Origin: Mobula hypostoma
Lineage: Eukaryota
Length of the DNA: 64,000 nucleotides
Reading direction: 5' to 3'
NCBI RefSeq assembly: GCF_963921235.1
Contig: NC_086107.1
Location: 105,712,001 to 105,776,000 of the forward strand
The notes beneath the pieces are model-generated. The model was not told the DNA's origin, searched no databases, and was given only the letters and a program-made list of their open reading frames with translations. The position numbers were made by a program, and so were the translations under genes. Below, one piece after another: positions 4,721 through 64,000 of the stretch; the stretch's first letter is position 1, and each line of letters begins with the position of its first letter.

Positions 4721-4734
4721 AAATACTTGTCCAA

Positions 4735-5017: not shown

Positions 5018-5263
5018 TTTCAGAACAGAGTGGTCGGGAAGGGGGGCAAAGTTCTCAGCCACATTGTGTTTATTGTTACCTCCCGAGAAATGGAGGTTGC
5101 TGGCAAAGTTTGTGGCTTAGAGAGAGACACAACACAGAAACAGGCCCCTCAGCCACAGTTGCCATCGAAACCCCATTTACACCACGGCAATCACTACTCC
5201 ACCTCACCCGTTCAACCTTACAGCAAAAAGTAGACGGGCACAGAGAGAAACTTTCAATATTTC

Positions 5264-5269
5264 TTTATT
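5264..5269 (-). terminator. Candidate polyadenylation signal AATAAA (possible distal mgp 3' end)
   Basis: Minus strand AATAAAgaaatattgaaagtttctctctgtgcccgtctactttttg: hexamer followed by a U/GU-rich tract, preceded by AT-rich non-repeat sequence. A nearer AATAAA (7316-7311) lies inside a repeat. Confidence 0.4.
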
Positions 5270-5729
5270 ATATATTCCTGTAAATGCCATTGAAAGTTTC
5301 AGTTACACTCTGCACCTATAATGATTAGGTTGTAAGCTTCAAACAGAGGTTGATAAGAAGCTCTTACAGGTTCAAGTCGCAAACAGGATGTATTTACAAG
5401 GTTTATGTGTATAATATACAGCATATGTTGCAGACTATAATTTTATTTCTCTCTGCTGATATGGTTTACACTGCGTTGGTTACTAATATTGTTAACTGGA
5501 GTACACTCTACTGAGTTTGGGCAGTCTGGAACAGGTGCTGGGCAGTCCTGCCCAGAGGCTGCAAACTCTACCCACCTCCCTCAAAAAAAAGCACCTTGTT
5601 GCTCTTGAGCTGAAATTGCTTTCCCTTTGCCGCTGGCTCTGAGGAAGTTCTTAGCCTCACTGTAGTGGAGAGAAGTCAGTGGTCTGGTCTGCTTTGTACC
5701 TGGCTGTACATATTCTCTGTCACTTGTGT

Positions 5730-6042
5730 CAGGCTCTTGAACCAAAGTGGATAACTTCACTCAACTTCACTTGCCCCATCACTGAAAAGTTCCCGCAACC
5801 TATGGACTCACTTTCAAGGACTCTTCATCTCGTGTTCTCAATATTTATTGCCTGTTTATTTATTATTGTCCTTCCTTATTTTTGTATTTGTGCAACTTGG
5901 TGTCTTCTGCAGTCTGGTTGAACTCTCAGACTGTGTGGTCTTTCATTGATTCTGTTACGCTTATTATTCTATAGACCTATCGAGTATGCCCACAAGAAAG
6001 TGAATCTCTGGGGTATATGGTGACATTCACTTTGAACTTTAA
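5730..6042 (+). mobile_element. LINE 3' UTR remnant (same family as 13970-14345)
   Basis: Shares cctatggactcactttcaagga, aagaaagtgaatctc and a tttgaacttt tail with 13970-14345. Confidence 0.6.
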
Positions 6043-7482
6043 TTAACTCTTACCATTTTTCCCCTCTTCCCAGTCCATCATCTGTCCAATGTCACCTTCC
6101 TGCCACCACTTCTCTCCCTTTCTGCATCGCTTGATAATTGGATCTCTTCAGTCAGTGAGAAAGGTATCCACCCAAAAAGGCTGGGACATTAAGTTCCCCT
6201 GTTAAGGGGCGGAGACACCTCTCTTCCTCATCCCAGTTGGGCTGAGGTAGAGGACGCCCCCAACCCTGAATGGGTCACCTCCATGGGAACCCTCTCGCTC
6301 CACAGAATGAGGGGCAGATGATTGCGTTCCTCTGGCCCCAAATCCCATGGTAAATGAGAGCTGACTTCTCTCTGACCTTTTCCCGTGGCACCTTACTGTG
6401 AGAAAGCCCAAGTCAGTAACCGTCTCCAGTGAGAGTATGAGTAGGAGAAAGAGTGGAGCTTGTAGTGTTAGCAATGATTTGGTGAGTGAATAGAGGGAGA
6501 TTGGCTGAAGGCAAAGCCTCAGTGCTTTGTGGAGATCCTTCCAGGAGTGAAAGAAAATGTGAAATAAAATCAGAAAATGGCGGAAATGCTCAGCTGGTCA
6601 GGTAGCATATGTGGGGAGAGAAGCAGAGTTGACATTTCAGGTTGATGACCTTTCATCAAAGACCTTCTGATCTGTAGTGCAAACAGTTCTCCTTCCACAG
6701 ATACTGGCTGAATGCTCCCGGCATTTTCTCTGCCTGATCCCTTTAGGAGCAAGCTGCGGAACACGGAGTTCGGTCTGAGACCCTTTTCCCGGCACTCCCC
6801 TCGGGAATGAGGTAACATCGCCACTGGGAAAAGCAACTGGCCCCCCCCCCCCACACACACAACTGGGCTACAGGCCCCAAGGCAGGATGTGAATGGCTTG
6901 GATGCCAGGGAAAGTTCTGTCGCTTTTCCTCCCGGTAACATTACTCGGCTGAAAAATTTTTTAAAAACTGCAGATGCTGGAAGTCTGAAATGAAAAGACA
7001 ATACTGGAAACACTCAGCAGGTCAAGGAATGAGAAGCATTTAGGGGAGATACTGGAATCGATAGGTCCAGGGGCAATGAGGAAGGTTACTGGGGTGAACA
7101 GAAGTTGTTACACTGAGACACCCTGGGGCAGGTACACCAGAAACCTGTGGGTCCATGCCAGATATTGAGGTGCATTCAGGGTGTGTTGGAGGGTTATCAT
7201 CTATAGAAGAGACGCAGGAGATTCTGGAAATCTTGAGCAACACACACAAAATGCTAGAGGGACTCAGCAGGTCAGGCAGCATCTATGGAGGGAGCCCAAC
7301 ACGTTGACTGTTTATTCCCCTCCATAGATGTTGCCTGACCTGCGGCGTAGCTCCTGCATTGTGTGTGTGTGTGTGTTACATCATTAATGGAACATCCCTC
7401 ACTACAGATGCTGCCTGACCAGCTGAGTCTTTCCAACACGTCCTGCTTCTATTTGACACTGTCCTGCCAACCACAGATTCCT

Positions 7483-7546
7483 GTGTGAGTCTGTGTGCGT
7501 GCGTGCGTGTGTGTGTGTGTGTGTCCGTGCGTGCGTGCATGCGTGC
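7483..7546. repeat. Compound (GT)n/(GCGT)n microsatellite in the mgp 3' UTR
   Basis: gtgtgcgtgcgtgcgtgtgtgtgtgtgtgtgtccgtgcgtgcgtgcatgcgtg, about 20 nt past the stop codon. Confidence 0.9.
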
Positions 7547-7566
7547 TCATCTTGCTGTTGCAGCCC

Positions 7567-7771
7567 CTAGTACCCGTAGTACTGTTTCCTGCTCCGATAG
7601 CCTCTCTGTCGGTGAGGCCGCAGCTGGCCGTGGCTCCCGGGGCGCATCCAGCCACCACCAAAGCGCCTGCTCTGAGCGTACCTGCCGTTGACCTGTCTTG
7701 TCAGGTGATCGCACAGCGGGTACTCCTCGCACTGCTCCCTGTTCACCTCGTATATGGGCTTGACTCGCGCC
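7567..7771 (-). CDS. mgp: Matrix Gla protein, coding part of last exon (Gla domain plus basic C-terminal extension)
   Basis: Minus strand: gttggttctccag|G GCG CGA GTC AAG CCC..., giving ARVKPIYEVNREQCEEYPLCDHLTRQVNGRYAQSRRFGGGWMRPGSHGQLRPHRQRGYRSRKQYYGY*. ExxxExC Gla motif with the CxxxxxC loop. Exons sum to 55+30+70+205=360 nt (119 aa + TAG). Confidence 0.95.
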
Positions 7772-7829
7772 CTGGAGAACCAACACAGGAAGCAGATAAC
7801 TGTTCAAGCATTTTGCAGAGAGTAATGTT

Positions 7830-8262
7830 GAATTTATAAACAGGCTCTTTGGCCCATCTAGTTTGTGCAGGCCGCTTTAGAACGTAGAACAGTACAGCAG
7901 TACAGTACCCACAGTGCTTTGTCGGAGTTTCAAAGAGTCGTAGAAAAGTAAGGCACAGAAACAGGCCCTTCAGCCCATCTAGTCTGTGCTGAACCATTTA
8001 ATCTACTTACTCCCATCAGCCTCCACCTGGCCTCCATACCCCTACCATCCATGAACTGATCTTAACTTCTCTTAAACGTTGAAATCAATCTTGTATGTAC
8101 GACTTATGCTGGCAGTTCTTTCCACACGCTCACCAGCCTATGAGTGAAGAAGTTTCTCCTCATGTTCCCCTTAAACTTTCTACCTTTCATCCTTAACCCT
8201 TGGTTGTAGTCCCACCCAACCTCCGTGGAAAAAGCCAGCTTGCATTTACCCTATATATATCC
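7830..8262 (-). mobile_element. CR1 LINE 3' fragments (continuing at ~9011-9075 after the Rex1 insertion)
   Basis: Minus strand ggggaacatgaggagaaacttcttcactcataggctggtgagcgtgtggaaagaactgccag (FFT.R.V..W..LP motif) and a CR1-type 3' tail gatgggctgaagggcctgtttctgtg. Confidence 0.75.
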
Positions 8263-8274
8263 CTATATATATCC

Positions 8275-9010
8275 AGACTAAGGAGCTGGTGGTAGACCTG
8301 AGGAGAGCTAAGGTACCGGTGACCCCTGTTTCTATCCAGGGGGTCAGTGTGGACATGGTGGAGGATTACAAATACCTGGGGATACAAATTGACAATAAAC
8401 TGGACAGGTCAAAGAACACTGAGGCTGTCTACAAGAAGGGTCAGAGCCGTCTCTATTTCCTGAGGAGACTGAGGTCCTTTAACATCTGCCGGACGATGCT
8501 GAGGATGTTCTACGAGTCTGTGGCGGCTAGTGCTATCATGTTTGCTGTTGTGTGCTGGGGCAGCAGGCTGAGGGTAGCAGACACCAACAGAATCAACAAA
8601 CTCATTCGTAAGGCCAGTGATGTTGTGGGGATGGAACTGGACTCTCTGACGGTGATATCTGAAAAGAGGATGCTGTCTAAGTTGCATGCCATCTTGGACA
8701 ATGTCTCCCATCCACTACATAATGTACTGGGTGGGTACAGGAGTACATTCAGCCAGAGACTCATTCCACCGAGATGCAACACAGAGCGTCATAGGAAGTC
8801 ATTCCTGCCTGTGGCCATCAAACTTTACAACTCCTCCCTTGGAGGGTCAGACACCCTGAGCCGATAGGCTGGTCCTGGACTTATTTCCTGGCATAATTTA
8901 CATATTACTATTTAACTATTTATGGTTTTATTACTATTTATTATTTATGGTGCAACTGTAACGAAAACCAATTTCCCCCAGGATCAATAAAGTATGGCTA
9001 TGACTATGAC
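8275..9010 (+). mobile_element. Rex1/Babar LINE, 5'-truncated, uninterrupted ORF C-terminus (in mgp intron 3, antisense)
   Basis: ORF 8289-8867 with YKYLG, KKGQSRLYFLRRLRSF, HPLH and SFLPVAIKLYN motifs; short 3' UTR ending ATCAATAAAG plus a (TATGAC)n-like tail. Confidence 0.88.
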
Positions 9011-9079
9011 CCTCATAATTTTGTATACCTCTATCAAATCTCCTCTAAGTTCTAAGGAGTAACGTCCTAACCTATCTTA

Positions 9080-9500
9080 CCGATAGTCCACTGAAAGCAT
9101 CTTGTCCAGATGCATCACGGCGTTGTACGGCAACTGCTCGGCATGTGAAAGCAAATAACTTCAGAGAGCTCAGCACGTCATGGAAGCCAGCCTCTGCTCT
9201 ACGGATTCTGTCTATACTTCTTGCTGCCTTGGCAAAGCAGCCAGCATTAATCAAAGACCCCAACCACCCTGCACGTTCTCTCTTCTCCTCTCTCCCATTA
9301 GGCAGAAGATACAAAAACCGGAAAGCATACACCACCAGGCTAAAGGACAGCTCCTACCTCCTTGTTATATGACTATTGAAAGTTTCACTGGAACAGTAAC
9401 TTGGGCACTTGACCTCACAATCAACCTTGCATCTTATTGTTTACCAACACTGCACTTGCTCTGCAGTTGTTAAACTTTATTCTGCATTCTGTAGTTGCTC
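9080..9500 (+). mobile_element. Rex1/Babar-like LINE 3' remnant
   Basis: IKDPNHPARSLFSSLPLGRRYK....TTRLKDS in ORF 9145-9372. Confidence 0.72.
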
Positions 9501-9687
9501 TACACGTGTGTATTCTGGCATGTCGGTCCATGGGCTCCTCTTGTGCCAAAATGAGGCCACCCTCAGGGAGGACGGAGCAATGCCTTATATTCCGTCTGGA
9601 TTCTATTTCTCATGCATCCCTTTGTACTGCTGCCGCACAACGACAAATTTCACGACACACGGCAGCGATATTAAACCCGATCACAAA

Positions 9688-9885
9688 CAAGAGGAAACCT
9701 GCAGAAGCTGGAAATCTGAGCAGCTCACACAAAACGCTGGAGGAACTCAGCAGGCCGGGCAGTGTCTATGGAGAAGAGTGAACAGTCGACATTTCGGGCT
9801 GAGACCTCCGTCAGGACTGCAGGAGAAAAGCCAGTCCTGCTGAAGGGTTTTGGCCCAGCATGCCTACTGTACTTTTCCCCATATT
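9688..9885. mobile_element. Short fold-back element made of two inverted Penelope-like termini with decayed hammerhead motifs
   Basis: ...aacagtcgacatttcgggctgagacctccgtcaggactg-caggagaaaagc-cagtcctgctgaagggttttggcccagcatgcctactgt... Confidence 0.72.
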
Positions 9886-9904
9886 AAACCTGATTCTGAT
9901 AATG

Positions 9905-10285
9905 AATGTAGAGCACAAAACGTAGAACGGAGAACAGTTGTGGACTGGAATGGTCCCTCAACCCATGAAGCTATGCCAAACTAATTAATTCAGAAATTAA
10001 ATGAATAACGAAACTAATTCCTGCCTCCGCACTGTCCACATCCCTCCATCTCCTGGACGTTAACGTTCCTTTCCAACTGCCTCTTAGCCACCTCTGTCGT
10101 ATTTGCCTCCACTACCAAGCCTGCAAGTGCATTCCAGACACCCACAACTCTCCAAAAATGCTTGGCACATCTCCTTATCCCCGCTGAACTAAAATGCATG
10201 CCCTCTAGTATTAGAACTATCAACCCTGGGAGAAAGATACCAGCTGTTAACTCTTACCTATGTTCCGTATGACCTTATAAGGAAT
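9905..10285 (-). mobile_element. Degenerate CR1 LINE 3' end
   Basis: ORF 10014-10223 contains FWRVVGVWNALAGLVVEANT, homologous to the 4735-5017 copy. Confidence 0.72.
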
Positions 10286-10979
10286 TCAATGGGCTGGTTT
10301 GGAGAATCCCAAGGTCGCGCACTGGCAGCACGTAGAATCCTTGCGTAAGTGGCAGAAAGAGCCCTCCGCACCCCCCACCACCCCAAACACGCGCACACAC
10401 ACACTCACAAAATTCCAACCCTCTGCTTTAGCCCTCTCCTGCTCTATCGGTGGAAGAGTCCGGATTCACACACTGGTCTTACCAGCCACTTCAGAACCCT
10501 TTTCAGCAACACTCTCAATCCTAGGGACAGAAGAGGTCCCGCAGATGCTGGAAATCCAGAATAACAAGCACAAGATTCTGCAGTCAGGCAGCATCTATAG
10601 AGGGGAATAAGTAGTTGGCGTTTCAGGCTGAGACCATTGTGCCTTGGCTGGAAACACCAAATGTTTGTTCCTCTCCGTAGATGCTGCCTGACCTGCCGAG
10701 TTCCTCCAGAATTTTGGGTTTGCTCCTCTCAATCCTGGGGTCTGCCTAAGGAGGAGAATGTAGGAAAAGGTGGCAGCTAATTTGTGTACAATACTCCGAG
10801 AGGGAAGGGGGAAGCATGTGTGATTTCTTAACCCTTACCGTCAGATATCTTCCCAGCCCAGAAGAAAGACCAATATCCCAATGCTCAGATGACTACCAAA
10901 GGCCAGTCCAGAATTAAACCACAGAACTATCTGGTGCCCCATGTGACTTTATAAAGACAGAATGGCTCTCTGAACAAAC

Positions 10980-11049
10980 CTTTCCCATGGATACCATCGA
11001 CTTGCAGGTCTCATAAAGGAATACGCATCTCCCCTCCCAAGGAACAGCA
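10980..11049 (-). CDS. mgp: Matrix Gla protein, exon 3 (gamma-carboxylase recognition region VLFLGRGDAYSFMRPASRWYPWER)
   Basis: Minus strand: cctttctcttgtag|TG CTG TTC CTT GGG AGG GGA GAT GCG TAT TCC TTT ATG AGA ... TGG GAA AG|gtttgt. 70 nt, phase 1-2. Resembles shark MGP VLFLGRQDANSFMR (recalled). Confidence 0.95.
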
Positions 11050-11419
11050 CTACAAGAGAAAGGAATTACATCAATGAAAGTTGTCCGGTCTTCACAAGAA
11101 AATCGTTCCTTCAAAATACACTCAGTGATATCTTAATGCACACCACATCTCTCAGTGCAGCACCTTTAGCTTACAATTATAGCCTCAGTATGGTTCTCAG
11201 GGTACCACCCCCACTCCCGTGTCACAGGTTCTGCTGCTGGTTTTAGTCTCCCTGACTCAATGTGTTTCATTATCTCTGTCCCAGTAAACCTGCCCCAGCA
11301 TGTCACAGTGCCTCTGGATCAGTGGGTCCTAGTGTCCGTCTTCCACTTGGATGTCCCTGCCACAGTTCACCCCGGGGATTCCAGAATTCCTGCCTTGCAC
11401 TGCTTCCGAGTTCCTATAG

Positions 11420-12185
11420 CAGTGTGTCTGTGACACAGTTTCTATTTGTCTCAGAGTCTCTGACCCCCTGTGTCTCAACGTCTGACCCACTGTGTCTCAG
11501 TGTTCCTGACCCTCTGTGTCACAGAGTCCCTGACCCTCTGTGTCTCAAAGTCTGACCCATTGTGTCTCAGTGTCCCTGATCCTCTGTGTCTCGATGTCTG
11601 ACCCATTGTGTCTCAGTATCTCCGACCCTCTGTGTCAGAGTTCCTGACCCTCTGTGTCTCGATGTCTGACCCATTATGTCTCAGTGTCCCTGATACATTA
11701 TGTCACAGTGTCCCTGACCCTCTGTGTCTCAATGTCTGACCTATTATGTCTCAGTGTCCCTGACCCTCTTGTTCACAGTGTCCCTGACCCTCTGTGTCTC
11801 AAAGTCTGACCCATTGTGTCTCAGTATTTCCGACCCTCTCTGTCAGTGTCCCTGACCCTCTGTGTCTCGATGTCTGATCCATTATGTCTCAGTGTCCCTG
11901 ACCCATTATGTCACAGCGTCCCTGACCCTCTGTGTCTCGATGTTTCTGACTCACTGTGTCATGGTGTTCTTGACCCATTGTGTCTCAGTGTCCGTGACCC
12001 TCCATGTCCCAGTGTCCGTGACCCTCTGTGTCCCAGTGTTCCTGACTCACTGTGTCATAGTGTTCTTGACCCATTGTGTCTCAGTGTCCACGACCCTCCG
12101 TGTCTCAGTGTCCGTGACCCTCTGTGTCCCTGTGTCCATGACCCTCTGCATCTCAGTATCCGTGACCCTCTGTGGTGTGACAGTT
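11420..12185. repeat. Degenerate 22/24-bp minisatellite in mgp intron 2
   Basis: Interspersed units TGTGTCTCAGTGTCCCTGACCCTC (24 bp) and TGTGTCTCGATGTCTGACCCAT (22 bp). Confidence 0.92.
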
Positions 12186-12342
12186 GTCCCACAGTGTACT
12201 GACAGTAATCCCACCTTCCTCTCTTTGTGTGTCTCTGTGTCGTTGCCTCACTGTGAATTCCAATATCCTGGCTCCAATGTGAGACCTCCTGCCCTACCCA
12301 TCACATGATTATGTGAAAGCCCGTTAATAAATTCTAACATAC

Positions 12343-12372
12343 CATCATCAATCTCATTGGACTCTGAGGAAT
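12343..12372 (-). CDS. mgp: Matrix Gla protein, exon 2 (phosphoserine domain DSSESNEIDD)
   Basis: Minus strand: ttttttctctttgcag|AT TCC TCA GAG TCC AAT GAG ATT GAT GAT G|gtatgt. 30 nt, phase 1-1, two S-x-E motifs. Matches the shark MGP N-terminus DSSESNEIED as I recall it. Confidence 0.95.
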
Positions 12373-12821
12373 CTGCAAAGAGAAAAAACTCTCATTAGTA
12401 ACATTAACAAATACAACCAACAACTATGAAAATTAATTTTCTTTAAATAGCAAAACCAATTAAAAACACAATATTCAGTGAGTGAGAGCAATCCCTCTGG
12501 AATATAGCCTTATGGTCTCAGAGGGTTAAGATGTTAATTGGTCTGTGGTGTTTCTTGTATTTGTGCAGGAAATGGTTTCAGGGGATTTGCACTCCCCAAC
12601 TTGGCAAAGCCTGAAAATGAAAAGACAGTTCCTTAGAAGGGAGTGTAAATGAAAAGAAAACTTCAGATGAAGTGAAAACAGCGAATGCTGGAAACACTCA
12701 GCGGGTCAGGCAGCATCTGTGGGGGAGAAACAGTTCATGTTTCAGGCCCAGGATCTTTACAGATTGTTCTGAGGAAGGGAAGGGCCTCAGACTTGAAACA
12801 ATAATTGTTTCTCTTCAACGG

Positions 12822-13037
12822 TTCAAAGATCCAATTTAACGTCAGAGAAATTTATACAATATACATCCTGAAATGCTTTTTCTTCGCAAACATCCACAAA
12901 AACAGAGAAGTGCCCCAAAGAATGAACGACAGATAAACACAAGAACCCCACATTACCCCAGCTCCCCTCCCTCCTGCGCGTAAGCGGCAGCGAGCAGCAA
13001 TACCCCCTCCCCCCCACCAGCAAAAAAATGCAAGCAC
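12822..13037 (-). mobile_element. Probable LINE 3' tail inserted into a Penelope-derived element
   Basis: Minus strand ends ...tatacatttctctgac.ttaaa..ggatctttgaac-like; it abruptly truncates the fold-back element at 12680-12815. Confidence 0.45.
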
Positions 13038-13969
13038 TTGAGGAGATGTTGCCCGAGAAGGAGCCTCCTGATTACTGATGGAATGAGTGATGCGAATCCC
13101 TCTCTACTGTGAGTCATGGTGGACTTGGGGAAAATGGGCAAATCCCTCTCTACAGTGAGCCAAGGTAGACCCTGAAACCCTACTGAAAAGACTCAACATA
13201 AGCTCAAGGAACAGCTCCTCATCTTCTTTCGGCTGATGTTCCAACATTTCGAATTCAACCATTATAATTAACTGACTTCCTCCGTCTGAACCAGATCTTT
13301 GAACTCATTTCAAATCTTTTACATAATACTTTACTTCTTCCTCCTCTCTCTCCAACCTCCCTTGATAACCTGTCACCACGGCAACCCTAACCTCACCCTA
13401 TCAGAGATATCCATCCTCCAAACCTCTGCAAAACTTAACTCTCTACCCTTTGACTGGAAACATTAGCACTGTGTTTTTTCTACAGCTGCTGCCTGACCCG
13501 ATGAGTATTTTCAACTTTTATTTCAGATTTCCAGCATCTGCAGTTGCTTTCGATGTTGAAATGTCTGATACTGCAAAGGCACCTTCACAGCCTCAGGGTG
13601 CCCTGAGGCATGCGACAGTTAGTGAGGTGCTGTTCTGGAAGTTCAACGACTAGTTTGTCCCTGCAACTCCAGGCTGAGATGGTACAAAAAGGATCAGACT
13701 CCCAGGGATTGAGCACCACGTTATCTCAAGGGAGTGGCGTTATATTTGTCTGTGATGCACTCCACAGGGATATCTCTTGGCATCTGCAGCTGGGTGTCCC
13801 TCTGTCTGCCAAAGGAAAATTACATGGGTATCACCTTCCACAACACAAAATGCGCAGAGAAAACCATTCCTTGAAAACATCCATCGGTGGAACAAATTAG
13901 GATTCACAGACCTACTCTACCGATAACTAAGGGGTTAATGGAGTTCTCGAGCCCTCCACTGCTTTAAGA

Positions 13970-14345
13970 AGTCTACACTTTCAGGAGCAGTTATTCCCCC
14001 TCAACCGTCAATCTCTTAAACCTGAGGGGATATCTTAACTCAACTTAACCCACCTCATCGCTGAAGTGTTCCCACAACCTATTGACTTGCTTTCAAGGAC
14101 AGTTTGCCTCATCTTCTTGATATTTATTGCTTATTTATTTAGTTATTATTATTATTTCCTTTAGTATTTGCACAGCTTCTGGTCTTTTGCACATTGGTTA
14201 GTTGTCCATCCTGTTGGGTGTGGCTGTTCATTGATACTATTGTGTTCCTTGCACTTACTGTGAACGCACAAAAGAAAATGAATCTCAGGGTTACATATAG
14301 TGACTTAAAAGTACTTTGATAATAAATCTACTTTGAACTTTGAAA
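13970..14345 (+). mobile_element. LINE 3' UTR remnant (Rex1-like) in mgp intron 1
   Basis: ttcaggagcagttattcccc start, and ends gataataaatctactttgaactttgaa; homologous to 5730-6042. Confidence 0.6.
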
Positions 14346-14883
14346 ACTTGTCCTTCTGATTAATGGTCACCTCTCTGCTGTTTGTGGCTGTTGGCGAGGA
14401 TGCCCGGGGTGAAGTTGTAGCTGCCTCAGCTCCACAGCCCCCTGGGTGAGTGTGTCCGAGCTCAGCACGCTGAACTGCAGATATCAAAGCCAAACCACCA
14501 GATCCAAGGCATGGACGTTACCCATAGCTTGTACAATCTGTCGGCTGCTGGACGTGGAAATAACTATCTAGGAAACAGCCAGCACAAAATTAAAAAACTG
14601 ACGCAGATACTTCTCGAGTAGCGATAGTCTGCACCCAGTCCTGTGGTTCTTCCGACAGAGAGCAACCAGTAACTGACCCCTGACATTAGATGACACCCAT
14701 GGAGGGACGCAGTTCAGCCCCAGTTACCTTCCCCAACCGTGAGAAAGGCTAGACAGCCTGCTGTAGGACTGCAAACTGTGGCATTCAAATTGACACTATG
14801 TCTAATTGAAATGTTCGACACTGGCTCTTCCAAGTCCACCTGAGTCTGAGAAAATATTGACGTCACCTTGAAATAAGGTGTGG

Positions 14884-16284
14884 CACTCCCTCAGTACTGT
14901 CCCTCCGATAGTGAGACACTCCCTCAGTACTGTCCCTCCGACAGTGAGACACTCCCTCAGTACTGTCCCTCCGATAGTGAGACACTCCCTCAGTACTGTC
15001 CCTCCGACAGTGAGACACTCCCTCAGTACCGTCCCTCTGACCGTGTGACACTCCCTCAGTACCGTCCCTCCGACAGTGAGACACTCCCTCAGTACCGTCC
15101 CTCTGACAGTGTGACACTCCCTCAGTACCGTCCCTCTGACAGTGAGACGCTCCCTCAGTACCGTCCCTCTGACAGTGAGACACTCCCTCGGTACTGTCCC
15201 TCTGACAGTGAGGCACTCCCCCAGTACCGTCCCTCTGACAGTGAGGCACTCCCCCGGTACCGTCCCTCTGACAGTGAGATGCTCCCTCAGTACCGTCCCT
15301 CTGACAGTGAGATGCTCCCTCAGTACCGTCCCTCTGACAGTGAGACACTCCCTTGGTACTGTCCCTCTGACAGTGAGACACTCCCTCAGTACCGTCCCTC
15401 TGACAGTGAGACACTCCCTCAGTACTGTCCCTCCGACAGTGAGACACTCCCTCAGTACCGTCCCTCTGACCGTGTGACACTCCCTCAGTACCGTCCCTCC
15501 GACAGTGAGACACTCCCTCAGTACCGTCCCTCTGACAGTGTGACACTCCCTCAGTACCGTCCCTCTGACAGTGAGACGCTCCCTCAGTACCGTCCCTCTG
15601 ACAGTGAGACACTCCCTCGGTACTGTCCCTCTGACAGTGAGGCACTCCCCCAGTACCGTCCCTCTGACAGTGAGGCACTCCCCCGGTACCGTCCCTCTGA
15701 CAGTGAGATGCTCCCTCAGTACCGTCCCTCTGACAGTGAGATGCTCCCTCAGTACCGTCCCTCTGACAGTGAGACACTCCCTCAGTACAGTCCCTTTGAC
15801 AGTGAGACACTCCTTCGGTACCGTCCCTCCGACAGTGTGACACTCCCTCAGTACTGTCCCTCTGACAGTGAGGCACTCCCTTGGTACTGTCCCTCCGACA
15901 GTGAGACACTCCCTCAGTACCGTCCCTCTGACAGTGAGACGCTCCCTCAGTACCGTCCCTCTGACAGTGAGACACTCCCTCAGTACCGTCCCTCTGACAG
16001 TGAGACACTCCCTCAGTACCGTCCCTCTGACAGTGAGACACTCCCTCGGTACCGTCCCTCTGACAGTGAGATGCTCCCTCAGTACTGTCCCTCTGACAGT
16101 GAGACACTCCCTCAGTACCGTCCCTCTGACAGTGAGACGCTCCCTCAGTACCGTCCCTCTGACAGTGAGACGCTCCCTCAGTACCGTCCCTCTGACAGTG
16201 AGACACTCCCTCAGTACCGTCCCTCTGACAGTGAGACGCTCCCTCAGTACCGTCCCTCTGACAGTGAGATGCTCCCTCAGTACT
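14884..16284. repeat. 33-bp tandem array (~42 monomers) in mgp intron 1
   Basis: Same monomer and orientation as the large array, but mostly the CAGTACCGT variant. Internal 429-bp (13-monomer) duplication. Confidence 0.98.
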
Positions 16285-16458
16285 TCTCATCTAAAATAAA
16301 CACAGTACTGAAAAGCCTCAGTGTTTCTTAAAAATATACATAAAAATCCTGATTATGTTCCAATCCTTTGTATTAAAAGTTGCACCCAGCCAAACAAAAT
16401 CTCCTTATTCTCTCCGTCTGGGATTAGGAAAGCAGCAGGGGTTAAGGCCGGGTCCTAC

Positions 16459-16513
16459 CTGCGTTGCAGACCGCAGCAAGGACAGAGAGTCCGAGGAGAA
16501 TCAGGATCCTCAT
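16459..16513 (-). CDS. mgp: Matrix Gla protein, coding exon 1 (signal peptide MRILILLGLSVLAAVCNA + first base of Asp)
   Basis: Minus strand: ccaag ATG AGG ATC CTG ATT CTC CTC GGA CTC TCT GTC CTT GCT GCG GTC TGC AAC GCA G|gtagga. 55 nt, hydrophobic signal peptide, phase-1 GT donor, joins in frame to exon 2. Confidence 0.93.
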
Positions 16514-16599
16514 CTTGGTTCAGCTCTTGGTCACTCGGCGTCTCTGTACACCAACCAGCTGGCCTTGTGTGTGTCTGAGCAGAGCTTGGCTCCAGAGAC

Positions 16600-16628
16600 C
16601 CTTATAAGAGGAGGCTTATTTACTCAGC
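16600..16628 (-). promoter_or_regulatory. Putative mgp core promoter (TATA-like TTATAA plus adjacent AP-1/forkhead-like TGAGTAAATAA)
   Basis: Minus strand ctTATAAggg at 16607-16602, ~90 nt upstream of the ATG. ctgagtaaataag lies just upstream. Support is position and motif only. Confidence 0.55.
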
Positions 16629-18626: not shown

Positions 18627-21600
18627 TCCCTCAGTACCTCTCCTCTGACAGTGAGACACTCCCTCAGTACCGTCCCTCTGACACTGAGATACTCCCTCGG
18701 TACTGTCCCTCTGACAGTGAGACACTCCCTCAGTACTGTCCCTCTGACAGTGAGACACTCCCTCAGTACTGTCCCTCCGACAGTGAGACACTCCCTCAGT
18801 ACTGTCCCTCCGACAGTGCGACACTCCCTCAGTACTGTCCCTCTGACAGTGAGACACTCCCTCAGTACCTCCCCTCTGACGGTGTGATACTCCTTCAGTA
18901 CTGTCCCTCTGACAGTGAGATACTTCCTCAGTACTGTCCCTCTGACGGTGTGATACTCCCTCAGTACTGTCCCTCTGACGGTGTGATACTCCCTCAGTAC
19001 TGTCCCTCTGACGGTGTGATACTCCCTCAGTACTGTCCCTCTGACAATGAGATACTCCCTCAGTACTGTCCCTCCGACAGTGAGATACTCCCTCAGTACT
19101 GTCCCTCTGACAGTGAGATACTCCCTCAGTACTGTCCCTCTGACAGTGAGACACGCCCTCAGTACTGTCCCTCTGACAGTGAGACACTCCCACAGTACTG
19201 TCCCTCCAACAGTGAGACACTCCCTCAGTACTGTCCTTCCGAGAGTGAGATACTCCCTCAGTACTGTCCCTCTGACAGTGAGACACTCCCTCAGTACTGT
19301 CCCTCTGACAGTGAGACACTCCCTCAGTACTGTCCCTCCGACAGTGAGACACTCCCTCAGTACTGTCCCTCTGACAGTGAGACACTCCCTCAGGACTGTC
19401 CCTCTGACAGTGAGACACTCCCTCAGTACTGTCCCTCCGACAGTGAGATACTCCCTCAGTACTGTCCCTCTGACAGTGAGACACTCGCTCAGTACTGTCC
19501 CTCCGACAGTGAGACACTCCCTCAGTACTGTCCCTCCGACAGTGAGACACTCTCTCAGTACTGTCCCTCTGACGGTGTTATACTCCCTCAGTACTGTCCC
19601 TCTGACAGGGTGACACTCCCTCAGTACCGTCCCTATGACAGTGAAACACTCCCTCAGTACTGTCACTCAGACAGTGAGATACTCCCACAGAACTGTCCCT
19701 CTGACAGTGAGACACCCCCTCAGTACTGTCCCTCTGACAGTGAGACACTCCCTCAGTACTGTCCCTCTGACAGTGTGACACTCCCTCAGTCCCGTCCCTC
19801 TGACAGTGAGACGCTCCCTCAGGACTGTCCCTCCGACAGTGAGATACTCCCTCAGCACTGTCCCTCCGACAGTGCGACACTCACTCAGTACTGTCCCTCT
19901 GATGGTAGGGCACTCCCTCAGCACTGTCCCTCCGACAGTGAGGCATTCCCTCAGTACTGTCCCTCCGACAGTGAGACACTCCCTCAGTACTGTCCCTCCG
20001 ACAGTGTGACACTCGCTCAGTACTGTCCCTCCGACAGTGAGAAACCCCCTCAGTACTGTCCCTCTGACAGTGAGACACTCCCTCAGTATTGTCCCTCCGA
20101 CAGTGAGATACTCCCTCAGTTCTGTCCAGCTGACAGTGAGACACTCCCTCAGTACTGTCCCTCTGACAGTGAGACACTCTCTCTGTACTGTCCCTCTGAC
20201 AGTGAGACACTCCCTCAGTACTGTCCCTCCGACAGTGAGATACTTCCTCAGTACTGTCCCTCTGACAGTGAGAAAATCCCTCAGTACTGTCCCTCTGATG
20301 GTAGATCAATCCCTCAGTACTGTCCCTCCGACAGTGAGACACTCCCTCAGTACTGTCCCGCTGACAGTGAGACACCCCCTCAGTACTGTCCCTCTGACAG
20401 TGAGACACTCCCTGAGTACTGTCCCTCCGACAGTGAGACACTCCCTCAGTACTGTCCCTCCGACAGTGAGACACTCCCTTAGAACTGTCCCTCCGATAGT
20501 GAGACACTCCCTCAGTACTGTCCCTCTGACAATGAGACTCTCCCTCAGTACCTCCCCTCTGACGGTGTGATACTCCTTCAGTACTGTCCCTCTGACAGTG
20601 TGACACTCCCTCAGTACTGTCCCTCTGACGGTGTGATACTCCCTCAGTACTGTCCCTCTGACAGTGTGATACTCCCTCAGTACCGTCCCTCCGACAGTGA
20701 GATACTCCCTCAGTACCTCCACTCTGACAGTGAGACACTCCCTCAGTACTGTCCCTCCGACAGTGAGATACTCCCTCAGAACTGTCCCTCTGACAGTGAG
20801 ACACTCCCTCAGTACTGTCCCTCTGACAGTGTGACACTCCCTCAGTACTGTCCCTCTGACAGTGAGACACTCCCTCAGTACTGTCCCTCCGACAGTGAGA
20901 TACTCCCTCAGCACTGTCCCTCCGACAGTGCGACACTCCCTCAGTACTGTCCCTCCGACAGTGTCAGTACTGTCCCTCTGACAGTGAGACACTCCCTCAG
21001 TACTGTCCCTCTGACAGTGAGACACTCCCTCAGTACTGTCCCTCTGATGGTAGGGCACTCCCTCAGTACTGTCCCTCCGACAGTGAGACACTCCCTCAGT
21101 ACCTCCCCTCTGACGGTGTGATACTCCTTCAGTACTGTCCCTCTGACAGTGAGATACTTCCTCAGTACTGTCCCTCTGACGGTGTGATACTCCCTCAGTA
21201 CTGTCCCTCTGACAGTGTGATACTCCCTCAGTACCGTCCCTCCGACAGTGAGATACTGGCTCAGTACCTCCCCTCTGACAGTGAGACACTGCCTCAGTAC
21301 TGTCCCTCTGACAGTGAGATACTCCCTCAGTACTGTCCCTCTGACAGTGAGATACTCCCTCAGTACTGTCCCTCTGACAGTGAGACACGCCCTCAGTACT
21401 GTCCCTCTGACAGTGAGACACTCCCACAGTACTGTCCCTCTGACAGTGAGACACTCCCTCAGTACTGTCCCTCCGACAGTGAGATACTCCCTCAGTACTG
21501 TCCCTCTGACAGTGAGATACTCCCTCAGTACTGTCCCTCTGACAGTGAGACACGCCCTCAGTACTGTCCCTCTGACAGTGAGACACTCCCACAGTACTGT

Positions 21601-24600
21601 CCCTCCAACAGTGAGACACTCCCTCAGTACTGTCCCTCCGACAGTGAGACACTCCCTCAGTACTGTCCCACCGACAGTGAGACACTCCCTCAGTACCTCC
21701 CCTCTGACGGTGTGATACTCCTTCAGTACTGTCCCTCTGACGGTGTGATACTCTCTCAGTACTGTCCCTCTGACAGTGCGATACTCCCTCAGTACCGTCC
21801 CTCCGACAGTGAGATACTCCCTCAGTACCTCCCCTCTGACAGTGAGACACTCCCTCAGTACTGTCCCTCTGACAGTGAGACACTCCCTCAGTACTGTCCC
21901 TCCGACATGAGATACTTCCTCAGTACTGTCCCTCTGACAGTGAGACACTCCCTCAGTACTGTCCCTCTGACAGTGAGACACTCCCTCAGTACGGTCCCTG
22001 CGACAGTGAGACACTCCCTCAGTACTGTCCCTCCGACATTGAGACACTCCCTTAGTACTGTCCCTCCGACAGTGAGACACTCTCTCAGTACTGTCCCTCT
22101 GACGGTGTGATACTCCCTCAGTACTGTCCCTCTGACAGGGTGACACTCCCTCAGTACCGTCCCTCTGACAGTGAGACACTCCCTCAGTACTGTACCTCCG
22201 ACCGTACGATACTCCCTCAGTACCTCCCCTCTGACAGTGAGACACACCCTCAGTACTGTCCCTCTGACAGTGAGACAATCCCTCAGAATTGTCCTTCCGA
22301 GAGTGAGATACTCCCTCAGTACTGTCCCTCTGACAGTGAGACACTCCCTCAGTACTGTCCCTCCGACAGTGAGACACTCCCTCAGTACTGTCCCTCTGAC
22401 AGTGAGACACTCCCTCAGTACTGTCCCTCCGACAGTGAGATACTCCCTCAGTACTGTCCCTCTGACAGTGAAACACTCCCTCAGTACTGTCACTCAGACA
22501 GTGAGATACTCCCACAGAACTGTCCCTCTGACAGTGAGACACCCCCTCAGTACTGTCCCTCTGACAGTGAGACACTCCCTCAGTACTGTCCCTCTGACAG
22601 TGTGACACTCCCTCAGTCCCGTCCCTCTGACAGTGAGACGCTCCCTCAGTACTGTCCCTCTGACAGTGAGACACGCCCTCAGTACTGTCCCTCTGACAGT
22701 GAGACACTCCCACAGTACTGTCCCTCCAACAGTGAGACACTCCCTCAGTACTGTCCTTCCGAGAGTGAGATACTCCCTCAGTACTGTCCCTCTGACAGTG
22801 AGACACTCCCTCAGTACTGTCCCTCTGACAGTGAGACACTCCCTCAGTACTGTCCCTCCGACAGTGAGACACTCCCTCAGTACTGTCCCTCTGACAGTGA
22901 GACACTCCCTCAGGACTGTCCCTCTGACAGTGAGACACTCCCTCAGTACTGTCCCTCCGACAGTGAGATACTCCCTCAGTACTGTCCCTCTGACAGTGAG
23001 ACACTCGCTCAGTACTGTCCCTCCGACAGTGAGACACTCCCTCAGTACTGTCCCTCCGACAGTGAGACACTCTCTCAGTACTGTCCCTCTGACGGTGTTA
23101 TACTCCCTCAGTACTGTCCCTCTGACAGGGTAACACTCCCTCAGTACCGTCCCTATGACAGTGAAACACTCCCTCAGTACTGTCACTCAGACAGTGAGAT
23201 ACTCCCACAGAACTGTCCCTCTGACAGTGAGACACCCCCTCAGTACTGTCCCTCTGACAGTGAGACACTCCCTCAGTACTGTCCCTCTGACAGTGTGACA
23301 CTCCCTCAGTCCCGTCCCTCTGACAGTGAGACGCTCCCTCAGGACTGTCCCTCCGACAGTGAGATACTCCCTCAGCACTGTCCCTCCGACAGTGCGACAC
23401 TCACTCAGTACTGTCCCTCTGATGGTAGGGCACTCCCTCAGCACTGTCCCTCCGACAGTGAGGCATTCCCTCAGTACTGTCCCTCCGACAGTGAGACACT
23501 CCCTCAGTACTGTCCCTCCGACAGTGTGACACTCGCTCAGTACTGTCCCTCCGACAGTGAGAAACCCCCTCAGTACTGTCCCTCTGACAGTGAGACACTC
23601 CCTCAGTATTGTCCCTCCGACAGTGAGATACTCCCTCAGTTCTGTCCAGCTGACAGTGAGACACTCCCTCAGTACTGTCCCTCTGACAGTGAGACACTCT
23701 CTCTGTACTGTCCCTCTGACAGTGAGACACTCCCTCAGTACTGTCCCTCCGACAGTGAGATACTTCCTCAGTACTGTCCCTCTGACAGTGAGAAAATCCC
23801 TCAGTACTGTCCCTCTGATGGTAGATCAATCCCTCAGTACTGTCCCTCCGACAGTGAGACACTCCCTCAGTACTGTCCCGCTGACAGTGAGACACCCCCT
23901 CAGTACTGTCCCTCTGACAGTGAGACACTCCCTGAGTACTGTCCCTCCGACAGTGAGACACTCCCTCAGTACTGTCCCTCCGACAGTGAGACACTCCCTT
24001 AGAACTGTCCCTCCGATAGTGAGACACTCCCTCAGTACTGTCCCTCTGACAATGAGACTCTCCCTCAGTACCTCCCCTCTGACGGTGTGATACTCCTTCA
24101 GTACTGTCCCTCTGACAGTGTGACACTCCCTCAGTACTGTCCCTCTGACGGTGTGATACTCCCTCAGTACTGTCCCTCTGACAGTGTGATACTCCCTCAG
24201 TACCGTCCCTCCGACAGTGAGATACTCCCTCAGTACCTCCACTCTGACAGTGAGACACTCCCTCAGTACTGTCCCTCCGACAGTGAGATACTCCCTCAGA
24301 ACTGTCCCTCTGACAGTGAGACACTCCCTCAGTACTGTCCCTCTGACAGTGTGACACTCCCTCAGTACTGTCCCTCTGACAGTGAGACACTCCCTCAGTA
24401 CTGTCCCTCCGACAGTGAGATACTCCCTCAGCACTGTCCCTCCGACAGTGCGACACTCCCTCAGTACTGTCCCTCCGACAGTGTCAGTACTGTCCCTCTG
24501 ACAGTGAGACACTCCCTCAGTACTGTCCCTCTGACAGTGAGACACTCCCTCAGTACTGTCCCTCTGATGGTAGGGCACTCCCTCAGTACTGTCCCTCCGA

Positions 24601-27600
24601 CAGTGAGACACTCCCTCAGTACCTCCCCTCTGACGGTGTGATACTCCTTCAGTACTGTCCCTCTGACAGTGAGATACTTCCTCAGTACTGTCCCTCTGAC
24701 GGTGTGATACTCCCTCAGTACTGTCCCTCTGACAGTGTGATACTCCCTCAGTACCGTCCCTCCGACAGTGAGATACTGGCTCAGTACCTCCCCTCTGACA
24801 GTGAGACACTGCCTCAGTACTGTCCCTCTGACAGTGAGATACTCCCTCAGTACTGTCCCTCTGACAGTGAGATACTCCCTCAGTACTGTCCCTCTGACAG
24901 TGAGACACGCCCTCAGTACTGTCCCTCTGACAGTGAGACACTCCCACAGTACTGTCCCTCTGACAGTGAGACACTCCCTCAGTACTGTCCCTCCGACAGT
25001 GTGATACTCCCTCAGTACTGTCCCTCTGACAGTGAGATACTCCCTCAGTACTGTCCCTCTGACAGTGAGACACGCCCTCAGTACTGTCCCTCTGACAGTG
25101 AGACACTCCCACAGTACTGTCCCTCCAATAGTGAGACACTCCCTCAGTACTGTCCCTCCGACAGTGAGACACTCCCTCAGTACTGTCCCACCGACAGTGA
25201 GACACTCCCTCAGTACCTCCCCTCTGACGGTGTGATACTCCTTCAGTACTGTCCCTCTGACGGTGTGATACTCTCTCAGTACTGTCCCTCTGACAGTGCG
25301 ATACTCCCTCAGTACCGTCCCTCCGACAGTGAGATACTCCCTCAGTACCTCCCCTCTGACAGTGAGACACTCCCTCAGTACTGTCCCTCTGACAGTGAGA
25401 CACTCCCTCAGTACTGTCCCTCCGACAGTGAGATACTTCCTCAGTACTGTCCCTCTGACAGTGAGACACTCCCTCAGTACTGTCCCTCTGACAGTGAGAC
25501 ACTCCCTCAGTACGGTCCCTGCGACAGTGAGACACTCCCTCAGTACTGTCCCTCCGACATTGAGACACTCCCTTAGTACTGTCCCTCCGACAGTGAACAC
25601 TCTCTCAGTACTGTCCCTCTGACGGTGTGATACTCCCTCAGTACTGTCCCTCTGACAGGGTGACACTCCCTCAGTACCGTCCCTCTGACAGTGAGACACT
25701 CCCTCAGTACTGTACCTCCGACCGTACGATACTCCCTCAGTACCTCCCCTCTGACAGTGAGACACACCCTCAGTACTGTCCCTCTGACAGTGAGACAATC
25801 CCTCAGAATTGTCCTTCCGAGAGTGAGATACTCCCTCAGTACTGTCCCTCTGACAGTGAGACACTCCCTCAGTACTGTCCCTCCGACAGTGAGACACTCC
25901 CTCAGTACTGTCCCTCTGACAGTGAGACACTCCCTCAGGACTGTCCCTCTGACAGTGAGACACTCCCTCAGTACTGTCCCTCCGACAGTGAGATACTCCC
26001 TCAGTACTGTCCCTCTGACAGTGAAACACTCCCTCAGTACTGTCACTCAGACAGTGAGATACTCCCACAGAACTGTCCCTCTGACAGTGAGACACCCCCT
26101 CAGTACTGTCCCTCTGACAGTGAGACACTCCCTCAGTACTGTCCCTCTGACAGTGTGACACTCCCTCAGTCCCGTCCCTCTGACAGTGAGACGCTCCCTC
26201 AGTACTGTCCCTCCGACAGTGAGATACTCCCTCAGCACTGTCCCTCCGACAGTGCGACACTCACTCAGTACTGTCCCTCTGATGGTAGGGCACTCCCTCA
26301 GCACTGTCCCTCCGACAGTGAGGCATTCCCTCAGTACTGTCCCTCCGACAGTGAGACACTCCCTCAGTACTGTCCCTCCGACAGTGTGACACTCGCTCAG
26401 TACTGTCCCTCCGATAGTGAGAAACCCCCTCAGTACTGTCCCTCTGACAGTGAGACACTCCCTCAGTATTGTCCCTCCGACAGTGAGATACTCCCTCAGT
26501 TCTGTCCAGCTGACAGTGAGACACTCCCTCAGTACTGTCCCTCTGACAGTGAGACACTCTCTCTGTACTGTCCCTCTGACAGTGAGACACTCCCTCAGTA
26601 CTGTCCCTCCGACAGTGAGATACTTCCTCAGTACTGTCCCTCTGACAGTGAGAAAATCCCTCAGTACTGTCCCTCTGATGGTAGATCAATCCCTCAGTAC
26701 TGTCCCTCCGACAGTGAGACACTCCCTCAGTACTGTCCCGCTGACAGTGAGACACCCCCTCAGTACTGTCCCTCTGACAGTGAGACACTCCCTGAGTACT
26801 GTCCCTCCGACAGTGAGACACTCCCTCAGTACTGTCCCTCCGACAGTGAGACACTCCCTTAGAACTGTCCCTCCGATAGTGAGACACTCCCTCAGTACTG
26901 TCCCTCTGACAATGAGACTCTCCCTCAGTACCTCCCCTCTGACGGTGTGATACTCCTTCAGTACTGTCCCTCTGACAGTGTGACACTCCCTCAGTACTGT
27001 CCCTCTGACGGTGTGATACTCCCTCAGTACTGTCCCTCTGACAGTGTGATACTCCCTCAGTACCGTCCCTCCGACAGTGAGATACTCCCTCAGTACCTCC
27101 ACTCTGACAGTGAGACACTCCCTCAGTACTGTCCCTCCGACAGTGAGATACTCCCTCAGAACTGTCCCTCTGACAGTGAGACACTCCCTCAGTACTGTCC
27201 CTCTGACAGTGTGACACTCCCTCAGTACTGTCCCTCTGACAGTGAGACACTCCCTCAGTACTGTCCCTCCGACAGTGAGATACTCCCTCAGCACTGTCCC
27301 TCCGACAGTGCGACACTCCCTCAGTACTGTCCCTCCGACAGTGTCAGTACTGTCCCTCTGACAGTGAGACACTCCCTCAGTACTGTCCCTCTGACAGTGA
27401 GACACTCCCTCAGTACTGTCCCTCTGATGGTAGGGCACTCCCTCAGTACTGTCCCTCCGACAGTGAGACACTCCCTCAGTACCTCCCCTCTGACGGTGTG
27501 ATACTCCTTCAGTACTGTCCCTCTGACAGTGAGATACTTCCTCAGTACTGTCCCTCTGACGGTGTGATACTCCCTCAGTACTGTCCCTCTGACAGTGTGA

Positions 27601-63600: not shown

Positions 63601-64000
63601 AGTACTGTCCCTCCGACAGTGAGGCACTCCCTCAGTACTGTCCCTCCGACAGTGAGACACTCCCTCAGTACTGTCCCTCTGACAGTGAGACACTCCCTCA
63701 GTACTGTCCGTCTGATGGTAGGGCACTCCCTCAGCACTGTCCCTCCGACATTGAGGCATTCCCTCAGTACTGTCCCTCCGACAGTGAGACACTCCCTCAG
63801 TACTGTCCCTCCGACAGTGTGACACTCCCTCAGTACTATGCCTCCGACACTGAGACACTCCCTCAGTACTGTCCCTCTGACAGTGAGACACTCCCTCAGT
63901 ACTGTCCCTCCGACAGTGAGATACTCCCTCAGTACTGTCCCTCTGACAGTGAGACACTCCCTCAGTACTGTCCGTCTGACAGTGAGACACTCCCTCAGTA
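18627..64000. repeat. Large 33-bp tandem satellite/minisatellite array (~1,375 monomers, runs off the window end)
   Basis: Uninterrupted head-to-tail consensus CAGTACTGTCCCTCYGACAGTGAGAYACTCCCT. 45,374 bp / 33. No non-repeat insertion noticed. Confidence 0.99.

Follow-up and report, generated by a model that had tools for sequence, protein, structure and literature searches.

A four-exon matrix Gla protein gene of the devil ray Mobula hypostoma, very probably Mgp1

Matrix Gla protein (MGP), a protein that depends on vitamin K, prevents premature calcification of cartilage and blood vessels, and the Mgp locus has the order Erp27-Mgp-Bgp-Ddx47. Cartilaginous fishes carry three genes of this family, Mgp1, Mgp2 and Bgp (Leurs et al. 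2021, PMC8006282). The same study gives a four-exon plan with the docking site in exon 3 and the Gla domain in exon 4, and its Mgp1 set comprises Raja, Amblyraja, Leucoraja, Scyliorhinus, Prionace, Galeorhinus, Rhincodon and Callorhinchus. Catshark Mgp1 is expressed in pre-mineralising chondrocytes and in gill vessels (PMC8006282). In Amblyraja, Leurs et al. located Mgp1 on a scaffold other than that of Mgp2/Bgp, and in Pristis they did not find it; in 2021 they proposed a batoid translocation of Mgp1 and requested more batoid data (PMC8006282).

We analysed a 64-kb stretch of Mobula hypostoma DNA, hereafter the window. The initial annotation had placed four minus-strand exons there, with GT-AG boundaries and intron phases 1, 1 and 2, and this model proved exact (Table 1). 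All three introns begin with GT and end with AG behind pyrimidine tracts, and the joined coding sequence of 360 nt is open without an internal stop; re-translation gave the claimed 119 residues letter for letter. The ORF track does miss the gene, as had been remarked, but this is trivial, none of the 34 ORFs of at least 60 aa between 7500 and 16600 lying in a coding frame by coordinates. The product is identical over 119/119 residues to RefSeq XP_062919450.1 (UniRef100_UPI002FC3088C), "matrix Gla protein-like" of Mobula hypostoma, a record whose name gives no paralogue. Because the product equals this RefSeq/UniRef protein and has end-to-end orthologues in three other rays and two sharks, the gene model is not a chance construct. 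The gene is thus already known, since RefSeq contains the same protein and a 2021 study described the paralogue. What was achieved is that a gene with small exons was annotated correctly by hand; as gene discovery, this offers nothing new.

Table 1. Features of the Mgp1 locus and its surroundings (positions in the window).
Feature	Position	Strand	Remarks
Exon 1, coding part	16459..16513	-	55 nt; ATG plus signal peptide of 18 aa, donor in phase 1
Intron 1	12373..16458	-	4086 nt; contains a 42-copy array of the 33-bp repeat at 14884-16283
Exon 2	12343..12372	-	30 nt; phosphorylation domain
Intron 2	11050..12342	-	1293 nt; degenerate 46/70-bp repeat at 11447-12174
Exon 3	10980..11049	-	70 nt; internal gamma-carboxylase recognition site
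Intron 3	7772..10979	-	3208 nt; antisense LINE-like frame at 8175-8867
Exon 4, coding part	7567..7771	-	205 nt with TAG; Gla core, then the divergent residues 73-90 and a tail rich in Arg and Tyr
Probable 5' untranslated part of exon 1	16514..16621	-	length inferred from contigs
TATAA box-like word	16602..16606	-	93 nt before ATG, motif scan; within inferred 5' extent of contigs
Probable long 3' UTR	5252..7566	-	~2.3 kb, repeat-interrupted; inferred from contigs
Candidate poly(A) signal AATAAA	5264..5269	-	motif scan
Second candidate AATAAA	5447-5442	-	motif scan
Neighbouring 33-bp satellite array	18627..64000	.	at least 45 kb, outside the gene; begins 2.1 kb upstream of ATG

The initial annotation had expected best matches within the MGP/osteocalcin family, and this was borne out by the identical RefSeq protein and by structure databases. 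A PDB search returned five sequences at E<=10, with matrix Gla protein 9NUB_A in front (E=1.3e-7) and osteocalcin behind it (3.5e-4); MGP also led osteocalcin in a PDB search with a 6-sequence profile. In the ESM Atlas, the first three matches were MGP clusters (0.91, 0.90 and 0.89). The Mobula hypostoma protein carries a precomputed domain assignment, PF25890 (BGLAP_C). Neither exon 3 nor exon 4 nor the complete protein matched a Gla family in local Pfam searches, and three orthologues including shark MGP did not either; this blank is uninformative, since a known shark MGP is blank as well. Among protein searches, a full-length word search yielded 2 proteins from 12 candidates and the HMMER library 1; the exon-4 search returned none among proteins of near length and the identical protein at longer lengths. 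The resulting comparison set consisted of six Mgp1 proteins, four from rays (including Mobula hypostoma) and two from lamniform sharks. Their tree separates sharks from rays only, and two of its three inner branches are open.

The SxE phospho-domain, carboxylase recognition site and ExxxExC motif that had been claimed for the protein are intact by sequence in the 6-protein alignment, and the Mgp1 order of signal peptide, phospho-domain, docking site and Gla domain over four exons is present. Residues 3-16 form a hydrophobic stretch (N-terminal hydropathy 2.4-2.9), and residues 1-18 match those of the other ray Mgp1 proteins at 16-17 of 18 positions. The predicted mature chain begins with DSSE, the Galeorhinus Mgp1 entry starting at the same D. 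Residues 19-28 are identical in 6/6 sequences and contain two S-x-E sites (S20 and S23) and, as a sequence motif, a possible S-x-pS site at S21. The recognition site runs L30-F31 ... A37 ... F40-M41. PMC12647623 names F-16, A-10 and hydrophobic residues at -7/-6 as carboxylase anchors; F-16, A-10, F-7 and M-6 are intact in Mobula, and the anchors are present in 6/6 sequences. The Gla core reads E60-x3-E64-x-C66-x5-C72, with E60, E64, C66 and C72 invariant in 6/6. The literal ANxF motif does not occur, AYSF standing in its place in all four ray proteins. At this position catshark has AHSF, a variant questioned by Leurs et al., Raja has AHFF and Amblyraja ANFF (PMC8006282). As the accepted Mgp1 proteins of catshark, Raja and Leucoraja (supplement 7, PMC8006282) also deviate from ANxF, it is not a strict Mgp1 criterion; read against GGCX structures, AYSF looks harmless.

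In common with chondrichthyan Mgp1 (PMC8006282), the Mobula gene has four exons, a signal peptide, the DSSESNEI phospho-domain, an internal docking site, ExxxExC and a long basic tail ending in Tyr. Such a tail had been called typical of shark MGP: it is indeed present, and in all six chondrichthyan Mgp1 of supplement 7, whereas the source of this DNA is a myliobatiform ray. Human MGP (9NUB chain A; P08493) matches over residues 19-86 with the carboxylase anchors kept. According to the Gla positions given in PMC3827180, Mobula E51, E60 and E64 align with human Gla37, Gla48 and Gla52, and C66 and C72 with both human cysteines; in contrast to human MGP, Mobula has no Glu at the Gla2 and Gla41 positions. 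The mature chain has 101 residues against 84 in human MGP, whose segment 61-77 is poorly kept in Mobula. Osteocalcin (Bgp) is homologous in its Gla core and propeptide-like site, but the Mobula docking site is internal, has A at -10, is preceded by the phospho-domain and is accompanied by no furin site.

Splicing was evaluated with read contigs from 4 of 10 candidate runs, presumed to be RNA and drawn from 3 studies, which were placed on positions 4000-11400 only. Of the RNA check suggested for three junctions, this range allowed junction 3, which was spliced in three of the four runs: the contigs of X1, X3 and X5, from 2 of the 3 studies, contain the intron-3 joint (a 3208-nt skip, CT..AC on the + strand), with 72 letters on the exon-3 side of the joint. 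Run X10, with little exon cover and no joint, says nothing either way, and low or absent cover of unique intron stretches was excluded as evidence. The X1 and X3 contigs cover the coding part of exon 4 with no differing letter and extend 264 letters each before position 7770; given junctions 1 and 2 as modelled, 108 letters, themselves unseen, would precede the ATG. On the 3' side, contigs span 5252/5278-7253 (X1 and X3) and 5426-7253 (X5) at depth figures resembling that of the spliced contig, and none joining this region (to 7253) with the coding part was found among the runs examined. From these contig extents, the gene probably reaches past its coding exons, to about 5250 (3') and about 16620 (5'). 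The X3 contig ends 12 nt past the first AATAAA and that of X5 16 nt past the second, a weak hint of transcript ends at these candidate signals, contigs being unable to prove an end.

The LINE-like frame in intron 3 matches Pfam PF09004 (E=2.7e-10). The 33-bp satellite comprises about 1369 copies in recurring blocks of 2708, 2860 and 3520 nt, and nothing relevant to it was seen among the literature matches listed. Long frames of 475-622 aa in the 33-bp arrays were rejected as genes; they are repeat artefacts, because several reading frames of the 33-bp unit contain no stop. The view that this is the only host gene in the window went uncontradicted in a spot check of 12 of 126 stop-to-stop frames and in an Rfam search of positions 1-20000, which gave no matches.

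By analogy with the family, Mgp1 of Mobula would be secreted after cleavage of the signal peptide behind A18. In the ER, F31, A37, F40 and M41 would dock on gamma-glutamyl carboxylase, which would convert E60, E64 and probably E51, E67 and E68 to Gla in a vitamin K-dependent manner; C66 and C72 may form a disulfide, and S20, S21 and S23 may be phosphorylated. The secreted protein would bind calcium-phosphate nuclei via phosphoserines and Gla residues and restrain mineralisation in vessel walls and in cartilage on the verge of calcifying, its basic C-terminal half, under weaker constraint, probably tethering it to the matrix. PMC3827180 assigns mineral inhibition to the phosphorylated N-terminus and the central Gla peptide, and the same two regions are the best kept in the Mobula protein. 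Carboxylation, phosphorylation and mineral inhibition by Mobula Mgp1 are thus predicted from sequence. An AlphaFold2 model on the 6-sequence alignment was unusable (pLDDT 48.5, pTM 0.12).

The assignment to Mgp1 is based on the diagnostic motifs and on a hand comparison with supplement 7 of PMC8006282. There, Raja clavata Mgp1 is of equal length and colinear with the Mobula protein, 71/119 residues being identical by ungapped hand count. Three observations could point to Mgp2, to osteocalcin (Bgp) or to a fourth, new paralogue: the RefSeq name reads only "MGP-like", the osteocalcin match spans nearly all of the N-terminal 90 residues, and the Mobula protein and shark MGP are only 53-54% identical. 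Such an origin is nevertheless very improbable: the Mobula protein has the Mgp1 phospho-domain that Mgp2 lacks, its mature part lacks the R-x-[RK]-R furin site that Bgp and elephant-shark Mgp2 possess, and MGP scores above osteocalcin in the PDB searches. The hallmarks of Mgp2, loss of the phospho-domain and a divergent Gly/Tyr-rich C-terminus of the Gla domain, are not seen, and the protein resembles the Mgp2 sequences in supplement 7 (PMC8006282) in the Gla core only. Sequence searches with Mobula Mgp1 yielded neither an Mgp2 nor a Bgp protein. Still less credible is an unexpressed or decaying copy, with spliced contigs stemming from a retrocopy or another paralogue. Repeats crowd the locus, the runs are only presumed RNA and X10 has no joint; yet the frame is open, the splice sites are canonical, the X1 and X3 contigs agree with exon 4 throughout, and intact orthologues of the same length exist in a congener (Mobula) and in Hypanus. 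We are therefore highly confident that the locus is the intact, spliced Mgp1 gene of the devil ray. The initial reading as a functional chondrichthyan mgp is supported, as far as sequence goes, by RefSeq identity, MGP-best matches and intact motifs, and can be refined to the Mgp1 paralogue.

Beyond residue 42 ray Mgp1 evolves rapidly, and this part includes the counterpart of the human peptide that binds fibronectin and vitronectin (MGP 61-77, as reported in PMC4158265). Compared with both stingray proteins, Mobula is identical at 24/24 positions in residues 19-42 and at 7/18 in residues 73-90. In the latter segment A84, F89 and G90 are kept in the 6-protein alignment, while Gly and Tyr are replaced by N80 and Q85, where the six Mgp1 of supplement 7 (PMC8006282) have Gly and Tyr/Phe/Ile. 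A GGGWM segment was observed only in Mobula and the other myliobatiform rays examined. Pairwise differences amount to 12/119 between the two Mobula proteins and 12/113 between the two stingrays, against 3/120 between the two lamniform sharks. Run X5 differs at 16/220 letters in its exon-4 piece versus 36/1430 in its 3' piece (Fisher P=7e-4). These observations would fit an Mgp1 by descent whose function has shifted in myliobatiform rays, the mineral-binding half being kept while residues 73-90 (human 61-77) and the tail changed partner or lost binding; we regard this as unlikely. A rough count in X5 gave at least 9 amino-acid-changing letters in 157 sites (~6%) versus at most 7 others in about 60 silent or UTR sites (~11%), a ratio of changing to other letters below 1 for a set in which 6 of the 16 differences were listed individually; a lineage-wide rate effect could also contribute to the divergence. 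Exon 4 is moreover CpG-rich (0.073 versus 0.016 per nt), and segment 73-90 also varies among sharks and skates (supplement 7, PMC8006282). Positive selection on ray Mgp1 was considered and is unsupported, the rough ratio being below 1 and the exon CpG-rich. It is an equally tentative proposal that, in stingrays and devil rays, a near-unchanged mineral-binding front half and a rapidly remodelled fibronectin/vitronectin-anchoring segment have shifted the inhibitor's place in tessellated cartilage.

In a literature search whose coverage excluded most subscription journals, we found no later treatment of batoid Mgp1 location, of AYSF or of the ray divergence. As an intact Mgp1 locus, which we consider it very likely to be, the Mobula gene bears on the question of batoid location raised by Leurs et al. 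Its value for the evolution of skeletal mineralisation is minor, and the uneven divergence of ray Mgp1 marks parts of the protein that are perhaps free to change.

The minus strand of the window was read directly and the exons were then joined by coordinates. The 360 spliced nucleotides encode a 119-aa protein, and the three introns (4086, 1293 and 3208 nt; phases 1, 1 and 2) all begin with GT and end with AG after a pyrimidine tract. Coordinate splicing reproduced the four exons, boundaries, phases and product claimed in the initial annotation. The claimed invisibility of Mgp1 to the ORF track was also found: none of the 34 ORFs of at least 60 aa within 7500-16600 lies in a coding frame (coordinate check), as is expected of short eukaryotic exons.

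Coordinates of the Mgp1 coding exons and of neighbouring repeat features in the window
Feature	Position	Strand	Details
Exon 1, coding part	16513-16459	-	55 nt; spliced by coordinates
Exon 2	12372-12343	-	30 nt; spliced by coordinates
Exon 3	11049-10980	-	70 nt; spliced by coordinates
Exon 4, coding part	7771-7567	-	205 nt; spliced by coordinates
Antisense frame in Mgp1 intron 3	8175-8867	+	230 codons; PF09004 E=2.7e-10
33-bp satellite array	18627-64000		about 1369 copies, at least 45 kb; begins 2.1 kb upstream of Mgp1 start codon
Intron-1 array of same 33-bp unit	14884-16283		42 copies; orientation as in large array

The spliced product (P0003) is identical to RefSeq XP_062919450.1, 'matrix Gla protein-like [Mobula hypostoma]', and the Mgp1 gene of this species is already annotated. 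Exon 4 alone matched one PDB chain at E<=10, the matrix Gla protein 9NUB_A (E=0.0011), and one longer protein, P0003 itself, with 100% identity. When the whole protein was searched, MGP (E=1.3e-7) ranked above osteocalcin (E=3.5e-4) among 5 PDB sequences, and it still did so in a profile search, among 12. Identity to the window protein is 90% in Mobula birostris, 74% in Hemitrygon akajei, 73% in Hypanus sabinus, 54% in Cetorhinus maximus and 53% in Carcharodon carcharias. The three rows listed in the Atlas were all MGP clusters with PF25890 BGLAP_C. Local Pfam gave no Gla family for the window protein and equally none for shark MGP proteins. Membership of the MGP family, as first claimed, agrees with the PDB and protein matches, with MGP first and osteocalcin behind.

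Chondrichthyes possess three genes of this family, described in passages of Leurs et al. (2021, PMC8006282): Mgp1; Mgp2, in which there is no phosphorylation domain and the Gla end is divergent; and Bgp, with a propeptide and, in elephant shark, a furin site. The phospho-domain of Mgp1, which Mgp2 lacks, is present in the window protein; a furin site, as in Bgp, is absent. Phosphorylation of shark MGP was reportedly described by Price et al. in 1994. Raja clavata Mgp1 aligned to the window protein without gaps, with 71/119 identical residues (hand count, supplement 7 of PMC8006282), and the exon plan is that outlined for catshark Mgp1 (same source). Together, motifs, Raja match and exon plan argue that the gene is Mgp1 among the three paralogues, which refines the earlier call of a chondrichthyan mgp to a ray Mgp1.

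Ten sequencing runs, all RNA by guess, were on the list, and contigs of four (X1, X3, X5 and X10) were placed on window positions 4000-11400. X1, X3 and X5 (3/4 runs, 2/3 studies) each have one contig that leaves out 3208 nt bounded by GT..AG; the short side of this joint, 72 letters, matches the exon 3 prediction. X10 contigs held no intron-3 joint in this region. X1 and X3 contigs show 0 other letters against exon 4. Among the three junctions proposed initially, the third was thus recovered; junctions 1 and 2 lie outside 4000-11400 and are predicted from the RefSeq model and colinearity with orthologues.

Ahead of position 7770, the X1 and X3 contigs each carry 264 letters, 156 of which are explained by modelled exons 1-3. 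The remaining 108 would extend Mgp1 to 16621, 15 nt past a TATAA at 16606. This excess (16514-16621, two runs) may come from a start site further upstream, from one more non-coding exon or from contig building. Downstream of the coding part, contigs that show neither ends nor strand cover about 5250-7250 and suggest a 3' UTR of ~2.3 kb (5252-7566), partly made of repeats; no contig spans 7253-7551, where a microsatellite and a SINE-like repeat lie. The X3 contig ends 12 nt beyond an AATAAA at 5269-5264, the X1 contig at 5278, before reaching this signal, and the X5 contig 16 nt beyond an AATAAA at 5447-5442. Contigs of organisms A and B end near different candidate poly(A) signals.

In the large satellite array, 125 distinct types occur among 1068 scored units, and exact long-range recurrences at 2708, 2860, 3520 and 16004 nt are higher-order blocks or collapsed duplications. 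The intron-1 array contains an internal duplication of 429 nt (13 units), shares 5 unit types with the large array and differs from its consensus by 1 letter. A Pfam scan of 12 of the 126 stop-to-stop frames gave one match, PF09004 in intron 3, a domain of LINE reverse-transcriptase tails. The matching frame has very high repeat cover in 4/4 runs and probably represents a young LINE's tail. By eye, positions 1-5200 presumably represent transposon debris, and short frames upstream of Mgp1 (17320-17806, +) look to us like a decayed Tc1-type transposase; 17320-17670 gave no Pfam match.

In excerpts of PMC8006282, the Amblyraja gene lies apart, on a short scaffold, and no Mgp1 was found in Pristis; Leurs et al. 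there propose a batoid translocation, allowing for an assembly artefact. The papers searched yielded no later literature on ray Mgp1 location or rate of change. Mgp1-bearing sequences measure 117-118 Mb in both Mobula species versus 26-43 Mb in two stingrays and two sharks, a hint that chromosomes fused in the lineage of Mobula.

By family resemblance, the signal peptide would be cleaved after A18; the Galeorhinus Mgp1 entry begins at D, the following residue (PMC8006282). GGCX structures, as summarised in parts of PMC12647623, show docking through F-16, A-10 and hydrophobic -7/-6, A at -10 being the mark of high-affinity substrates such as MGP. Correctly spaced anchors F31, A37, F40 and M41 are present in 6/6 aligned proteins, and through them the window protein may likewise dock on GGCX. 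Leurs et al. raised doubts, in a passage of PMC8006282, over the catshark AHSF docking motif; since the anchors are kept in 6/6, AYSF, like AHSF, alters a position outside them. Predicted Gla sites are E51, E60 and E64, opposite human Gla37, 48 and 52 in the alignment, with E67/E68 as additional candidates; counterparts of human Gla2 and Gla41 are missing (Gla positions from a section of PMC3827180). According to the same section, hydroxyapatite inhibition resides in the N-terminus in its phosphorylated form and in the central Gla peptide. Catshark Mgp1 is expressed in chondrocytes shortly before mineralisation and in gill vessels (passages of PMC8006282 and PMC13188829).

Conservation is uneven: residues 19-42 are identical in both stingrays (24/24), versus 7/18 for residues 73-90. 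In the alignment the latter correspond to human MGP 61-77, a segment to which fibronectin and vitronectin bind (PMC4158265, in part). Compared with the six Mgp1 of supplement 7 (PMC8006282), N80 replaces Gly and Q85 a hydrophobic residue; Q85 is unique to the window protein among the six aligned proteins. Ray pairs differ at 12/119 and 12/113 residues, the shark pair at 3/120. Both stingray proteins (P0004 and P0007) carry an R-G-R-R furin-type site at residues 80-83, directly past the Gla core; it is missing from both Mobula proteins, and the two sharks carry a furin-type site in the tail instead.

The uneven change along ray Mgp1 is slightly unusual, but selection as its cause is not supported. 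Run X5 diverges more in exon 4 (16/220 letters) than in the 3' piece (36/1430; P=7e-4); 4/6 listed differences alter a residue, 4/4 yielding that of the Mobula birostris protein (P0005). Against selection, exon 4 is CpG-rich and the rough replacement-to-silent ratio is about 0.5; 6/16 differences were listed, and the comparison had no background control. Our boldest reading, which we hold to be rather unlikely, is that Mgp1 of stingrays and devil rays kept its mineral-binding front and remodelled the fibronectin/vitronectin segment, which would shift the inhibitor's place in cartilage.
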